Made by a program: the position numbers and the translations under genes. A DNA stretch of 64,000 nucleotides from a virus (taxonomy: Duplodnaviria; Caudoviricetes): the IMG/VR virus record IMGVR_UViG_3300025640_001000. One strand, 5' to 3'. The notes under the pieces were generated by a model. The model worked only from the letters and a program-made list of their open reading frames with translations, was not told the origin of the DNA and made no database searches. Shown here in pieces: positions 8,363 through 23,766 of the stretch. Position 1 is the stretch's first letter; each line of letters starts with the position of its first letter.

Positions 8363-11300
8363 ATGAAAAACGACAACAATTCAAACAACGACAATGTAAC
8401 TGCATTTGATAACCAAGACAATCCAATTGTGATTTTAGTTGGTGCTGGAAACATGAATACAGCACCTTACTATCCATTTACCTTTGAAGAGGGGGGTGAG
8501 GTTGTCACACAACTTGTTGCAGGTACTTCGTACAAATTTAAAGCTGGTGAAGAATACACCGGTCACCCACTTAATATAGGAACAGGTGGTAGTACGGCAG
8601 AACCACTTGAGGGACTTCAACCTTTTCGTGATGGTGAAGATCCATCACCTGCGGGAATCATGCCATTAAATCCAAATAGTTACTTTAACATCACAGTACC
8701 TGAATCTGCCGAATCTTTAAATTATCAATGTAGTAGTCATATGTCAATGTTCGGTACTTTAACTGTTGTTGAACCTTCAGCAGAAGATACAACTGACGAT
8801 TCATCAACTGAAGAAACTACTGATACTGGTTCAACTGCACCGGGTGCAGTAACAATGTCATTACCAGACGAAATTGTAGTTGATAAAGATAATCCAAATG
8901 CTGGTGACTTTATTTACGTAAGTGGTCGTTGTTATGAAAAAACGAACACCTCGGGGGAAGAACATGAAGTAACACACGATCAAGTATTTGGAGGAATGTT
9001 AGATACCAAATCTGTTACTGTTGTATCACCCAAAGACTCACCCACGGTTACCTCTATATCCAGATATGATGTAATACAAAAGCAATTTACCGGTTGTGAC
9101 GATTGTGGTTCTTATGGTACCAGATATCGTGGTCAATCAAAAGAAACAGGAAAAGATTTTAAAATCAAGGTCATTAAGGAAATTGATTCTGATAACGGAA
9201 GTGTATATAGATACAAATTAAACGGAGAAGATAGAAATGGTTTCTTTAATCTTGTGACCAACCGAGATTTATTATTTTATGATAATGATTCGGTGACATT
9301 TGATATCGGATCGTTGAGTAGTGCTGATAAATCAAACTTTAATGTGACTGCTCAGAACGCTGCCGATGGTGAAAACAAACGGATTGTGGGAAACACACGC
9401 AGTGACCCTGGGTTATATTCAAAATTAAGAAATACAACATCTTCTATTAACGTCGGAGAGTATGCATACAACGAGAATGGCAACTCAGACGATATGGGTG
9501 GAACTATTTTAGTTAAAAAAAATCCATACGAAGACAACATATATTACGATGAAGCAAAACTCAAACAATTTCCTGATAGATTGCTTGCAACTAAAAGTCA
9601 CTCGTTACTTATTAAAAATGATGGTCGTGTTTACGGAACTGGATACAATTCCAGTTTTCAGCTGGGAATTGATCGTGATAGATCAAATTCGTCTCGTCGA
9701 GATACCCTGACGAATTGGACACCAACCTTAATCAATGAAATTGGCCCCATAAAAAAGATTTCAGGATGTGGCAATCATCATTGTTATATTACATACGATA
9801 ATAAATTGTATTTATCTGGACAAAACGATAGAGGTCAACTTGGTCGTGGTGACACCGCACACTCACCAAAACCCCAAATGGCAGAAATCAATCACGCAAC
9901 TGCTTCCGAGGAAGGTAGTGAAACACTTTATTTAAGTGAAGATATTCACACACGAATCATTGATGCAGATGCAGGTATGTATCATACCGTTGCATTGGAT
10001 GTAAATCAACGAATTTGGGTATGGGGAACAAGTGGTACAGCTGGTAATATGCTACTTAGTTTCAACAATAGAACAGGTAGTACCTCCGGATGGAGATATC
10101 AAGAAAGTCCATATAATACTTATGACCCGAGTGGTGCTGGTGGATTTAATACTGGAGGTCATGCTTACATTCAGACACGATCTATTTTGGCATATTGGGG
10201 AGAAACTTCTACAACAAATTCAAATCCTGCGAAGATAACAAATCCAGACCAATTCGATTCATCGACACACATACGACAAGTTGCGTGTGGGTTGTACACA
10301 ACATTTATACTAAATAGTGCCGGAAAGGTTTATAGTTGTGGATACAATGCCAATGGAGAACTCGGTCAAAGTTCTATCGATGGCAGAGAAAATGCAGATG
10401 CCGGTTATGCCCAAAACCCACATAGATCACTCGGAGCGGTATCTAGCACAGGAGGTAACGGAGAGGATACCGAACTGATTCATGTAAAAAAAGTAATAAC
10501 AGGTGATCGTCACACTTTACTATTAACATACGATGAGAAATTATATGGATTTGGAAAAAACACAAATGGATGTTTGGGTAAAGATCCTACTGATGATGCT
10601 TACGAATCAAAACCAATATTGTTATCAGGAGAAGATAAAGTTTATGCAGCTTCTGCTGGTGCCAATTCCACAGCATATATTACATATGAAGGAAAAGTTA
10701 AAGTTGCAGGAAGCAACATAAACGGAAAACTTGGAATAGATAGATTCATCGAAGCACCTGTACCACAAGTGCGAGCATCGACTGAGGAAATAACTTCATT
10801 CACAGAATCACCCAACTTAACGGGTGTAATTGAAATTAAAATGGGTGATCAATATACTCTTGGGTTAATGACCGATGGCCAGATAATCGCATTGGGTGAT
10901 AATCAATATGGTTCTCTTGGAACTCGGGGTAGTATTGATGGAAATTCTGATACGTATTCAAGGTATGACGATGCAGATGCAGGAGTCAATTCCAACAATT
11001 TGCAAAATTTTGGAAGAACCATTGATTTTAAAAACACAGACAAAACATTGATATGTATGCCGAATACCACATTAATTTGGCAAAAAGAAGCCACTACTCA
11101 GAAAGTACAAGCTGCCGGCCGCAGTGCTGAATATCAAGGGGGCTACTATAATGATGTTGCAACGGCTATTGCAGCTGAAAAAGATTTAACCCTAATTAAT
11201 AATACATTGTCAGGTACGGTTACTGAAGACAATGCGACTATTACAAAAATTGTAGCAACACACTCTAATACCGTAAAAATGATAAATAGCAAAGGTGAAT

Positions 11301-20154: not shown

Positions 20155-20343
20155 GACATCAGTAACGGATCATCTTCAAATGAATATATGGTTTATTTAG
20201 ATGGTGGGGTGATCCTTGGAACTTTAAGCATTCCTGCTTAATACATTTTAAAAATAATTATATGTTCTAATTTTATAGTGTTTGTAAATATTCACGATAT
20301 TACTATATTGATTATATCAATCGTATAAAGTTTGAGTAATATA

Positions 20344-20351
20344 TATTTATA
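20344..20351 (+). promoter_or_regulatory. TATTTATA putative late-promoter motif
   Basis: 4 nt before ATG 20356. Confidence 0.55.
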
Positions 20352-20355
20352 GATT

Positions 20356-20880
20356 ATGCAATCTATAAAACTTAAAGATTTGTTACCCGAAGGATTATTT
20401 GATAAACCATCTTTTGCAAGAACTGAACGAGTTCATGCGGAAATGAATAAAATTGATTCTAAAACAATTCTTCGTAAATACAAAGCAACAAATCAGAAAC
20501 TTCATAAAAAACCAAATGGATTTTGGTATGCATTTGGAAACGAGTGGACGGATTATGTAAATGGTGTAGGGGGTGGTTTTGAATCACAATACAATTGGTA
20601 TTACAAAGTAAATGTAAACGGTTGTAAAATGCGTGAGTTAAAATCTGAAAAAGACATCGTAGAATTTACAAAAGAATACACAGACTTTGACGGTACAGAT
20701 GAAACTTTATTTGCAACATTTTTTATTGATTGGAATTTGGTTGCAAAAGATTATGACGGAATAGAAGTATTTCCATTTCCCAAGAAAAATATGCCTGAAG
20801 CAAAGTGGTTAAAGTCATGGGATGTAAGTAGTGGTTGCGTTTGGAACACAAACAAGGTAAAATTAGAATTTGTGGGATAA
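20356..20880 (+). CDS. Hypothetical protein with IKLKDLLxE leader; ADP-ribosyltransferase-like fold is speculative
   Basis: MQSIKLKDLLPEG; KPNGFWYA, AKDYDGIEV, WDVSSGCVWN; preceded by TATTTATA. Confidence 0.6.
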   Translation: MQSIKLKDLLPEGLFDKPSFARTERVHAEMNKIDSKTILRKYKATNQKLHKKPNGFWYAFGNEWTDYVNGVGGGFESQYNWYYKVNVNGCKMRELKSEKDIVEFTKEYTDFDGTDETLFATFFIDWNLVAKDYDGIEVFPFPKKNMPEAKWLKSWDVSSGCVWNTNKVKLEFVG

Positions 20881-20885
20881 TTAAA

Positions 20886-22331
20886 ATGGCAATTATTAAA
20901 TTAAAAGATTTATTGATGGAGGGTGCGAAAGAAAAAGCAACATTAGACTTCCTTAAACAACTTATTAGAAAAAGTCCATACGAAGGAAAGGTATTTCTTG
21001 CAGGTGGAGCAGTTCGTGATGAACTCATGGGAATTGATGCAAATGATTTGGACTTTGTTATTAATCTTGAGGATGGAGGAGCAAAGTTTGCAGAATGGGC
21101 AACCAAGAAGATCGGTAACTATAAAAAAGGATCGAATCCTGTAACCTATGAAACATACGGAACTGCGAAGTTTAATTTAGTTGGAGTAGAACACAAAGGA
21201 TTTAAATTGGATGACATGGATATTGATTGTGTTATGCCACGTACTGAGGAATACGAAGAAGGAAGTCGTAAACCAAAAGTTGATTCGGGATCACTTAAAG
21301 ATGATGTAGATCGCCGAGATTTCACAACAAATAGTTTGCTTAAAAATTTAAGCACAGGTGAAATACTTGATTTAACAGGTATGGGAAAGCAAGATATCAA
21401 AGACGGTGTAGTAAGAACACCTCTTGATCCTAACGTAATTTTCTCGGAAGACCCACTTCGTATGCTTCGTGCGATTCGTTTTACAATGAAATACAATTGG
21501 AAGTTACCATTGTTTATGATCAAGGCACTTAAAAACAATGCGAGCAAACTCAAGCAAATAAGTGTAGAACGAGTTCAAGAAGAACTCAACAAAATGCTGA
21601 TGACCGATTCTCCTGATCGTGCAATCAAACTTCTGCAAATTACAGGACTCAGCAAATATGTTTTTCCTGAATTAGATCGTTTGATAAAACTTGAACAAAA
21701 CAAGTATCACAAAGAAGATGCAATGGAACATACTTTAAGTGTTGTTAAAGGCACTCCCAAGAACCTTGTAACTCGTTTAATGGCATTGTTCCATGATATT
21801 GGTAAAGAAGCAACCAAAGAAGTTATCGGCAAAGAAATTCATTTTTATGGTCACGAAAAAATTGGTGCGGAAATGACCGAAAAGATTTTAACAAGATTGA
21901 AATATCCTAACAAAATCATAGATGCAGTTGTAAAGGGTGTTGCAAATCATATGAAATTGAAACACGGAGGACCTGATTCGTTTGGAGCAACCGACAAAAC
22001 ACTTCGTAAATTCAAAGTAAATATGGGTGACCACCTTGAAGATGTTCTTAATTTAATACACGCAGATAATATTGCCCACGAAGCAGGATTTGATATGCCG
22101 AATCAAATTGATGCAATTCGCAAACGTCTTGATACACTTGGAATACCACAGGGCAAATTGAAACTTCCAATCAACGGAAAAGACATACTGAAAAAATATA
22201 AGTTGAAATCTGGTAGCATTATTGGTGACCTTCTTGCAATCGTAAAAGACGAATATTTGGAAAATCCAAAAGTAACTGCAAATAAGATTTATCCAAAACT
22301 TGAAAAGTATTTGAAAGATCATCCTCAGTAA
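20886..22331 (+). CDS. cca: Class II CCA-adding tRNA nucleotidyltransferase with HD phosphohydrolase domain
   Basis: LAGGAVRD...DLD, RTEEYEEGSRKP loop, RRDFTTN, EDPLRMLRAIRF; HD domain HT...ALFHDIGK...HFYGHE. ATG at 20886 gives MAIIKLKDLLME. Confidence 0.92.
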   Translation: MAIIKLKDLLMEGAKEKATLDFLKQLIRKSPYEGKVFLAGGAVRDELMGIDANDLDFVINLEDGGAKFAEWATKKIGNYKKGSNPVTYETYGTAKFNLVGVEHKGFKLDDMDIDCVMPRTEEYEEGSRKPKVDSGSLKDDVDRRDFTTNSLLKNLSTGEILDLTGMGKQDIKDGVVRTPLDPNVIFSEDPLRMLRAIRFTMKYNWKLPLFMIKALKNNASKLKQISVERVQEELNKMLMTDSPDRAIKLLQITGLSKYVFPELDRLIKLEQNKYHKEDAMEHTLSVVKGTPKNLVTRLMALFHDIGKEATKEVIGKEIHFYGHEKIGAEMTEKILTRLKYPNKIIDAVVKGVANHMKLKHGGPDSFGATDKTLRKFKVNMGDHLEDVLNLIHADNIAHEAGFDMPNQIDAIRKRLDTLGIPQGKLKLPINGKDILKKYKLKSGSIIGDLLAIVKDEYLENPKVTANKIYPKLEKYLKDHPQ

Positions 22332-22855
22332 ATAACTTTACTAAGCAAACAAAATGAATGAGTTTTATTCCAAGCAGAAGTTTGAATAAACTCGAATCCA
22401 GATTTGTTTAGTTCGTTGATTTTGTCCTGTAGCAAATATCCTTGAGAAATTTCATACTGAAAGCATTTGTATTGAAATTTTATAGGACTTGTTTTATCAC
22501 CGATCAACTGCAACTTAAAAACAAATGCAGCGGTTCCACTTTTTTCATTAACAATTCCCATTCTATCTGTATGCCAACCATATTCTCCCATGTCGTTCAT
22601 AGACTTTTCAGTTGATTTATTTGTGACCATCAACGAAAGCATCATGTATTGAAACCGTTGATTTTTTCGTCTGATTTGAAATGGAATTTCAGGATCCCAT
22701 GAATAATCAGGATCACCTGTTTTATAAATGTAGTTATCGAACGACTTTGCTTTTTTAATTGCTTCGTCAACTGTACGGAATTTTGTGCGAATCCAAGAAT
22801 CATTGTAACTTGAACTTGAACCTGAACTTGAACTTGATGAATTTCTGAATGCCAT
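22325..22855 (-). CDS. Hypothetical protein with a Ser-rich N-terminus and two short DUF4177-like repeats
   Basis: 176-aa ORF filling an otherwise empty gap; MNDMGEYGWH and INELNKSGFEF resemble the LNxxGxxGWE pattern. Only minus-strand gene in the window. Confidence 0.6.
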   Translation of the reverse strand: MAFRNSSSSSSGSSSSYNDSWIRTKFRTVDEAIKKAKSFDNYIYKTGDPDYSWDPEIPFQIRRKNQRFQYMMLSLMVTNKSTEKSMNDMGEYGWHTDRMGIVNEKSGTAAFVFKLQLIGDKTSPIKFQYKCFQYEISQGYLLQDKINELNKSGFEFIQTSAWNKTHSFCLLSKVIY

Positions 22856-22873
22856 GATTTGTAACGTATTTAC

Positions 22874-22881
22874 TACTTATA
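22874..22881 (+). promoter_or_regulatory. TACTTATA variant of the motif
   Basis: 3 nt before ATG 22885. Confidence 0.5.
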
Positions 22882-22884
22882 TAT

Positions 22885-23766
22885 ATGTTGGAAATGCCAA
22901 ACTTAATTCAATTGATACCAGAATCAAAAAAACTTATAGGAGCAACCATACCTGATTTATTAAATACTTTTTTAAATTTTGAAAACAAAGTGTTGATAAT
23001 GTTTGATGTTGAAACTCTTGGATTGAATCCTGGTTACGATTACGAACAGATCACCGAAATTGCCGCTTGTGCAATTTCGGGTGACAATATGCAAGAATTG
23101 AAAAAAATAAACTTTAAGGTTGAACTTTCCGAATCAGCAAAGGAACTGTTAGAAAACACAGATAGCATTCAAAGATTCAATTGGGAACGACGTCAGTCAA
23201 AGCGAGGAAAAACTGCGTTTACTGATCCAAACGAACTTTTAAAGATGACACACTATTATGAAATAAAAAGTAAATGTGAAACAGAAGAATTTGCTATAAA
23301 AAAGTTTTACGAGTTCGTTGAACAATATGAAGATGTCATTTTGGTTGCTCATAATGCAAACTTTGATGTGAGTTTTGTTCATATACGTGGCAATCAGTAT
23401 CAACTTAAATTCCCAACTACAACAATATTAGATACTCTTAGGTTATCTCAGTTTTTCTTTGTTCCTACGGTTGAAACACTTAAAACTTCAGTTGCAACCG
23501 AACTATATGAACGTTTATCTAGAAAAAACAGAAAACGAATTCATATTAGTTCTAGATTGGGGGATTTGGCAGACGCATTTAAAATAAATTCCGAGATGTG
23601 GCATTCTGCATCAGCAGACATTGACATGATGAATCAAGTTATGGTAAAAATTATAAAGTTTCTTGAAACCAACAAACAAACCAATATAAAACTTGCTCAA
23701 GAAAAAGCAATTTATAGAACATTAAAGAAAAAAAGAATACCAAGAAAACGAGGTGGCAACGGATAA
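22885..23766 (+). CDS. DEDDh 3'-5' exonuclease (DnaQ/RNase T superfamily)
   Basis: ExoI FDVETLG, ExoII VAHNANFD, ExoIII WHSASAD. Confidence 0.88.
   Translation: MLEMPNLIQLIPESKKLIGATIPDLLNTFLNFENKVLIMFDVETLGLNPGYDYEQITEIAACAISGDNMQELKKINFKVELSESAKELLENTDSIQRFNWERRQSKRGKTAFTDPNELLKMTHYYEIKSKCETEEFAIKKFYEFVEQYEDVILVAHNANFDVSFVHIRGNQYQLKFPTTTILDTLRLSQFFFVPTVETLKTSVATELYERLSRKNRKRIHISSRLGDLADAFKINSEMWHSASADIDMMNQVMVKIIKFLETNKQTNIKLAQEKAIYRTLKKKRIPRKRGGNG

Follow-up and report, generated by a model that had tools for sequence, protein, structure and literature searches.

The question raised by the locus described here is whether two enzymes encoded close together in a viral genome fragment form a functional unit for the repair of transfer RNA (tRNA) 3′ ends. 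The fragment, a 64-kb stretch of the Caudoviricetes virus record IMGVR_UViG_3300025640_001000 analyzed over its full length and hereafter called the window, encodes a CCA-adding enzyme with an HD domain and, one gene away, a DEDDh 3′-5′ exonuclease. Toxins that block the acceptor end of tRNA act by pyrophosphorylation (CapRel type) or by nucleotidylation (MenT type), and the preliminary description of the locus had proposed that trimming by the exonuclease, healing by the HD domain and re-addition of CCA by the nucleotidyltransferase would together act as a kit to counter such toxins. Our analysis reveals that the CCA/HD enzyme is genuine and intact and nothing out of the ordinary among huge phages, that the proposed kit fails, on comparative sequence evidence, as a conserved unit, and that the more interesting feature of the locus is not the pairing of the two enzymes, which is lost outside one syntenic marine subclade, but a short N-terminal leader that they share. 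The explanation that we favor, and that we hold to be somewhat on the probable side of even, joins a CCA repair enzyme of a virus-specific clade, a separate accessory exonuclease and this shared leader.

The nucleotidyltransferase and HD motifs that the preliminary description had reported as intact are confirmed by profile matches and residue conservation. Pfam detects the PolyA_pol head (residues 37-177, 1.7e-20), the PolyA_pol_RNAbd domain (1.8e-16), the HD domain (PF01966, residues 294-362, 1.6e-8) and the tRNA_NucTran2_2 tail (2.8e-8), the HDIG model matches at 2.8e-9, and the protein matches PHROG 2244, labeled ‘tRNA nucleotidyltransferase’, at 9.5e-56. Across 12 members of the clade the diagnostic residues are invariant in motif A (GGxVRD...DxD; G40, G41, R44, D45, D54 and D56), motif B (RRD; R143, R144 and D145), motif D ((E)DxxR; D189 and R192) and the HD domain (H275, H303, D304, H319, H323, H355, D394 and H398). 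The AlphaFold2 (AF2) model, with a predicted local distance difference test score (pLDDT) of 89.6, adopts the head-neck-body-tail fold of class II enzymes and matches solved CCA-adding structures from Arabidopsis, Aquifex, Bacillus and Thermotoga (9kma, 3wfr, 1miv, 5hc9 and 4x4w; E 1e-13 to 4e-17). From the RTE motif to motif B there are 24 residues, an unshortened segment whose length is compatible with full CCA addition. Among NCBIfam models the best match, over the full length, is the actinobacterial-type TIGR02692, at 228 bits against a curated equivalog cut-off of 438.8 bits, with all other models scoring lower. To judge from its sequence, the enzyme is of a known type and represents a divergent subfamily of it that is specific to viruses.

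Homologues of the enzyme number in the thousands, and their distribution sets the viral ones apart. Relatives at 34-61% identity all lie on IMG/VR viral contigs (80 loci, 73 of them distinct), and the best cellular matches, searched in one genome each of 185,579 prokaryotic species, reach about 30-35% identity with a single exception. This is a 15-kb contig (CAWAZD010000023.1; locus L013) in an Ignavibacteriales metagenome-assembled genome, with a CCA enzyme 58% identical to that of the window; it carries both an enzyme of the viral clade and a gene with the leader MIKLKDILNE, and it probably represents phage DNA in an Ignavibacteriales bin. These comparisons place the enzyme in a large, apparently virus-only clade whose carriers are huge phages. 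Recovery of the relatives depended on alignment breadth: IMG/VR gave no matches when scanned with a single sequence of either enzyme or with a narrow exonuclease alignment, and wider alignments of broader membership were needed. The closest GenBank phage by CCA enzyme is LR756501.1 (735 kb, 56.5% identity), where the enzyme forms the C-terminal part of a 1233-amino-acid (aa) frame (L001:9700-13401) that begins with a cytidine/dCMP-deaminase domain. Directly upstream of the CCA domain this frame has an M-L-N-E/A junction resembling the leader site, and the fusion may be a protease-cut polyprotein. In the marine clade, the 86%-identical CCA enzyme is carried on a contig of 495 kb. One marine relative (L005:584-2029) has its CCA gene broken into two open reading frames (ORFs) of 269 and 202 aa, reflecting either a frameshift or an assembly error.

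Metagenomic relatives of the exonuclease at 44-98% identity, every one of them, lie in the same syntenic block, which runs from a gene of the PHROG family phrog_8582 through the CCA gene, an antisense gene, the exonuclease gene and two small genes to the genes of large ‘WYG’ proteins. The adjacency of the two enzymes is, on this evidence of gene order, whole-region synteny of one marine subclade. Outside it, the exonuclease was found within 8 kb at none of the 73 distinct (80 total) CCA-centered IMG/VR loci, a CCA-family gene lay within 10 kb at only one of 74 distinct exonuclease-centered loci, and the exonuclease profile had no match in five whole large relatives, two of them complete. Loss of the pairing among relatives is what the preliminary description had named as refuting its proposal, and outside the subclade this is the case. 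Within the subclade the two proteins have diverged at very different rates (identities of 86-96% for the CCA enzyme and 44-58% for the exonuclease), the exonuclease gene has its own upstream AT-rich motif, and the two genes constitute separate transcription units rather than one operon, since the conserved antisense gene lies between them. Clustering of leader-tagged genes, moreover, would explain their adjacency equally well. What speaks for a kit is that the two genes stay adjacent throughout the marine subclade, even where exonuclease identity falls to 44%, and that an unrelated lineage offers an independent parallel: at locus L217 an exonuclease-family gene lies 1.8 kb from a CCA-type nucleotidyltransferase (L217:9637-11517) fused to an NT5C-like HAD domain that replaces the HD domain. 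In four further lineages the exonuclease has an NT5C-like HAD protein as its neighbor, the healing of RNA ends by HAD phosphatase domains is known from T4 Pnkp, and in one remote relative the exonuclease is joined to an NTP_transf_2 nucleotidyltransferase domain. L217 counts for the kit, being the one independent sign of a network that trims, heals and rebuilds, and beyond it and the synteny of one subclade nothing ties the exonuclease specifically to tRNA or to the CCA enzyme. We consider a dedicated trimming, healing and re-adding kit quite improbable.

The gene really coupled to the CCA gene is its upstream neighbor of the phrog_8582 family. The protein is 79-91% identical across the marine relatives, in which its stop codon overlaps the CCA start by 1-4 nt, and a single upstream ATATTTATAG motif serves the pair. 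It matches no Pfam family. An ADP-ribosyltransferase identity is a weak lead only, appearing in protein-atlas cluster scores of 0.84-0.85 without Pfam support.

The exonuclease itself is intact, as had been claimed, and the one gene separating it from the CCA gene is the 176-aa antisense ORF. The exonuclease matches PF00929 at 2.5e-9, its DEDDh residues (D41, E43, D161, H240 and D245) are invariant among 14 relatives, and its AF2 model has a pLDDT of 88.5. The parallel that the preliminary description drew with RNase T, a DEDDh enzyme that trims tRNA ends, does not extend to orthology: the match to RNase T fails at 20.3 bits against the TIGR01298 cut-off of 246.2, the best sequence matches are the DNA exonucleases PolC, DnaQ, DinG and Cas-associated DEDDh, and the best full-length profile match is to Cas-associated DEDDh (2e-17). 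Foldseek ranks the DinG exonuclease, RNase T, DnaQ, the PolC exonuclease and ExoI about equally and leaves RNA and DNA types unseparated. DNA or small nucleic acids seem, from these matches, slightly more likely substrates than tRNA ends. The family comprises 2338 remote relatives, some fused to YkuD, GNAT, DUF5661 or NTP_transf_2 domains, and its neighbors in other lineages are lysozymes and NT5C-like HAD proteins, not polymerases. We set aside the replicative proofreading subunit implied by the PHROG 192 label on account of these fusions and neighbors and of the leader that the family carries.

Whether the CCA enzyme repairs tRNAs or completes newly made ones can be addressed through the tRNA genes of its carriers. 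Five large phages of the clade (LR756501.1 and four designated G001 to G004) have 27-66 tRNA matches each. CCA is encoded in 53 of the 54 tRNA or transfer-messenger RNA (tmRNA) genes of G003 (365 kb, rated complete), the remaining gene having ACCA directly after it; among the genes examined, it is encoded in 34 of 36 in G001, in all 33 in G002 and in 11 of 15 in G004, leaving four without, and LR756501.1 encodes it in only 7 of 54 tRNA genes, leaving 47 without. The first three phages favor a repair role. The simpler alternative, that the enzyme mainly matures phage tRNAs without encoded CCA and that the exonuclease is unrelated, holds in some lineages, as LR756501.1 and the four G004 genes illustrate. 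As an account of the enzyme described here we regard it as unlikely: G001, G002 and G003 encode CCA on nearly all their tRNA genes yet retain the enzyme, a tmRNA (L199:4565-4976) from a marine relative with an 86%-identical CCA enzyme ends in CCACCA, with the CCA encoded in the gene, and no tRNA gene was found in the 64-kb window (searched with ARAGORN), which also has no match to Rfam families, or in about 50 kb of relatives examined. The proposal of tRNA 3′-end repair made in the preliminary description is plausible for the enzyme, with backing from the three relatives that encode CCA almost throughout, whereas LR756501.1 favors maturation; the check proposed there, whether tRNA genes lack an encoded CCA, was followed up here in relatives and gave a lack in most genes of LR756501.1 and in nearly none of G001, G002 and G003. 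Related phages keep the enzyme with nearly all or with nearly none of their tRNA genes encoding CCA. Its retention whatever the state of those genes argues for a role beyond first-time synthesis; it does not simply compensate for missing CCA, and a repair or counter-defense role is therefore directly testable. The L199 tmRNA has the ARAGORN tag AKAEFSALEDAEVALVA, and its 3′ end lies about 40 nt before an alanine dehydrogenase gene.

The N-terminal leader, of consensus M-I-K-L-K-x-L-L-x-E, is found in the window on the CCA enzyme (MAIIKLKDLLME), on the phrog_8582 protein (MQSIKLKDLLPE) and, in a weaker version, on the exonuclease (MLEMPNLIQLIPE). A scan of the N-terminal residues that every gene encodes, made with the pattern hydrophobic-x-x-[LI]-[LIV]-x-E, returned 3 of 33 genes in the window (0.09 expected by chance), 27 of 467 in G003 (3.6 expected) and 154 of the 1169 CCA neighbors in 73 viral loci (7.4 expected), 53 of which begin exactly with MIKLK; cellular CCA loci, used as a control, gave 8 of 773 (3.7 expected). 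The leader is enriched about 20-fold in these phages. It is present in 83 of 100 full-length members of the CCA clade, with G (74), A (6) or S (3) directly after its Glu, and in 82 of them the distance from this Glu forward to the GG motif is exactly 28 residues. Longer N-terminal extensions, of up to 160 residues, retain the Glu site. Residues 1-10 of the CCA enzyme have a pLDDT below 50 in the AF2 model and are predicted to be unstructured. Five codons are in use for Leu4 of the leader, which places selection at the level of the protein, and on this ground a DNA or RNA motif was rejected. The leader also occurs on 32 of the 150 best remote relatives of the exonuclease, and in G003 the CCA gene stands inside a run of nine leader genes that includes a lysozyme, GNATs and a 2H/Acb1-like esterase. 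At L217, a run of genes all begin with a lineage-specific leader of their own, M-x-L-L-R-x-Y-I-R-E-x-L-x-E.

According to the explanation that we favor, the clade belongs to huge phages with T4-type heads and large tRNA sets, and the CCA enzyme would restore CCA ends that tRNA and tmRNA have lost or bear only in part. Its HD domain, by analogy with E. coli Cca, would probably first strip the 2′,3′-cyclic or 3′-phosphate groups that block addition. In the marine lineage its main job would most likely be the upkeep and repair of CCA ends on host and phage tRNAs, over first-time synthesis. The exonuclease would be a separate, fast-evolving accessory gene and not an obligate partner, and the reason for the adjacency of the two genes would be their joint membership in a group of accessory enzymes with the same leader of about 12 residues. 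Such leader-tagged enzymes appear to cluster in islands beside late, structural-type genes. The phrog_8582 protein and an NT5C-like nucleotidase would also belong to this group, to which relatives add a lysozyme, GNAT acetyltransferases and a 2H phosphoesterase.

Among known signals, the leader most resembles a T4 capsid-targeting sequence, which would be cut after its Glu by a prohead protease. In T4, capsid-targeting sequences of 10-19 residues load unrelated proteins into the head, and gp21, whose protease type cuts after (L/I)-x-Glu, removes them (PMC9026906). That the leader likewise loads proteins into the capsid is a tentative proposal, to which we give appreciable credence short of even. 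The aside in the preliminary description that the enzymes might be delivered from the virion gains indirect backing from this shared and strongly enriched leader and from the T4-type prohead proteases of relatives. Going one step further, the CCA/HD enzyme, probably together with the exonuclease, the phrog_8582 protein and the NT5C-like nucleotidase, might be head cargo of huge phages that is injected with the DNA, a possibility that we would sooner doubt than assert. The MIKLKxLLxE leader would then dock these proteins to the prohead core, a T4-type protease would cut after Glu12, and the injected enzymes would place tRNA 3′-end repair before phage gene expression, pre-empting abortive-infection toxins that act on the acceptor end. 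Were it a true capsid-targeting signal, the leader would define a large and easily recognized set of injected enzymes in uncultured huge phages, and a tRNA-repair enzyme would join the first wave of infection.

The leader could instead be a degradation or adaptor tag for a ClpC-type unfoldase encoded by the phage itself, a signal for sorting to another compartment or a translation-start preference, in which case the enzymes bearing it would act only within the infected cell, after their synthesis there. The marine clade does encode a full ClpB/ClpC-like ATPase nearby. This alternative we also rate as doubtful, and several features of the leader argue against it: its conservation as protein and not as DNA, its lack of structure in the model, its ending in hydrophobic-x-Glu, with Gly, Ala or Ser next, at a spacing from the catalytic core that stays constant when the N-terminal extension reaches 160 residues, its presence on a lysozyme, a typical ejected-protein activity, and the occurrence in all five large relatives of a Peptidase_S77 prohead protease of the T4 gp21 type, with its matching cleavage preference.

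Several observations nevertheless count against the explanation that we favor or against its extension to head cargo, and two of them also lend support to the intracellular alternative. The first of these two is that the megaphage loci LR756502.1 (L202) and LR745206.1 (L203) bear leaders of the form MKYLKxYxxFES or MKHLKKFNES on about one third of their genes in 20 kb; leaders on a third of the local genes are many for capsid cargo and call for caution. The second is that HMMER aligns residues 3-20 of the CCA enzyme with the N-terminus of a plant CCA enzyme. The prohead protease evidence comes from five relatives outside the window's own clade, and the tRNA census likewise describes relatives, the window offering no tRNA gene of its own. 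The census of LR756501.1 favors maturation, which makes first-time synthesis a genuine task of the enzyme in some members of the clade. L217 and the HAD neighbors of the exonuclease, finally, could reflect a looser functional network.

The features of the region are collected in Table 1. The window has a low G+C content (about 35%), and 32 of its 33 mapped genes are on the plus strand. Giant ORFs are frequent and carry LRR/DUF285, RCC1 or Laminin_G_3 domains. The promoter-like motif ATATTTATA[TG] has six exact matches in the 64 kb, all on the plus, coding strand and 4-33 nt 5′ of the start codons at 8363, 17515, 20356, 24536, 32972 and 53683, and is common to giant structural-type genes and the CCA gene pair.

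Table 1. Coordinates of features in the window
Feature	Position	Strand	Basis or remark
Promoter-like motif ATATTTATAG	20343..20352	+	directly upstream of the phrog_8582-CCA gene pair
Copies of ATATTTATA[TG]	8335, 17473, 20343, 24522, 32952, 53658	+	exact motif match
phrog_8582 protein, 174 aa, function unassigned	20356..20880	+	phrog_8582 at 1.8e-11; leader MQSIKLKDLLPE
N-terminal leader of the CCA enzyme, MAIIKLKDLLME, then G13	20886..20921	+	leader motif
Class II tRNA nucleotidyltransferase (CCA-adding) with C-terminal HD phosphohydrolase domain, 481 aa	20886..22331	+	Pfam, PHROG, motifs
Antisense gene, 176 aa, Ser-rich N-terminus	22325..22855	-	conserved ORF
DEDDh 3′-5′ exonuclease with basic C-terminal tail, 293 aa	22885..23766	+	PF00929; N-terminus MLEMPNLIQLIPE
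Genes with the (G)WYG module (starts)	6446, 24536, 25794, 26553, 27902, 31483, 31982, 39939, 42521, 42834, 44151, 53683, 57542, 59629		shared N-terminal module

The antisense gene, the sole minus-strand gene among the 33 mapped, shares 7 nt with the 3′ end of the CCA gene and is separated by 29 nt from the start of the exonuclease gene. Every marine relative has it at this position and in this orientation, and it is fast-evolving (38-71% identity). Its product has no Pfam or PHROG family, and its Atlas model shows a DUF4177-type likeness (TM score 0.55) from which no function can be read. Fourteen mostly large proteins of the window share an N-terminal module consisting of about 10-20 residues followed by (G)WYG-x-C...C, which looks like the common N-terminal anchor of a family of fiber- or adhesin-like proteins. 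Upstream of the CCA gene in the marine loci L185 and L199 lies an island of nucleotide and protein-turnover enzymes, with a nucleoside deoxyribosyltransferase, a low-molecular-weight phosphatase, a pyrophosphatase, a NUDIX protein, a subtilase, an Rce1-like protease, a ClpB/ClpC-like ATPase and a leader-tagged NT5C nucleotidase.

Comparison with known systems places these observations in context. With the internal proteins and Alt of T4 (PMC9026906), the locus shares a leader, some 10-12 residues long and with hydrophobic-x-Glu at its end, on the unrelated products of clustered genes and, in its relatives, proteases of the gp21 family; it differs in that the cargo would here consist of RNA and nucleotide enzymes, a CCA-adding enzyme among them. 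The exonuclease resembles RNase T in its DEDDh catalytic residues and core fold and differs from it by a 90-residue C-terminal helical and basic extension and by the N-terminal leader. E. coli Cca, which serves in addition and repair and carries an HD domain, has in common with the window enzyme the nucleotidyltransferase head and an HD domain with intact metal-binding residues, but the window enzyme scores only 123 bits against the NF008137 cut-off of 451. The E. coli enzyme works in repair, because all E. coli tRNA genes encode CCA. T4 Pnkp and Rnl1 repair tRNA against the PrrC anticodon nuclease, mending the anticodon loop by ligation, and provide a precedent for phage-encoded healing and rebuilding of damaged tRNA as counter-defense; in the present case rebuilding would concern the acceptor end and proceed by untemplated addition, and the roughly 110 kb of the marine clade that were examined yielded no RNA ligase.

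A phage enzyme that rebuilds CCA tails is in itself already known for huge phages; to our knowledge, such enzymes have been catalogued and never assayed. In the passages searched, Al-Shayeb et al. (2020, PMC7162821) describe CCA-adding enzymes in huge phages as part of a translation set, Iyer et al. (2021, PMC7824862) describe those of jumbo phages in terms of RNA repair and tRNA 3′-end restoration, and neither mentions a conserved leader or coupling to a phrog_8582 gene. As far as those passages go, the systems are alike in combining a class II enzyme with a very large phage and many tRNA genes, and the window enzyme is set apart from them by its virus-only subclade, its conserved leader and its coupled phrog_8582 gene.

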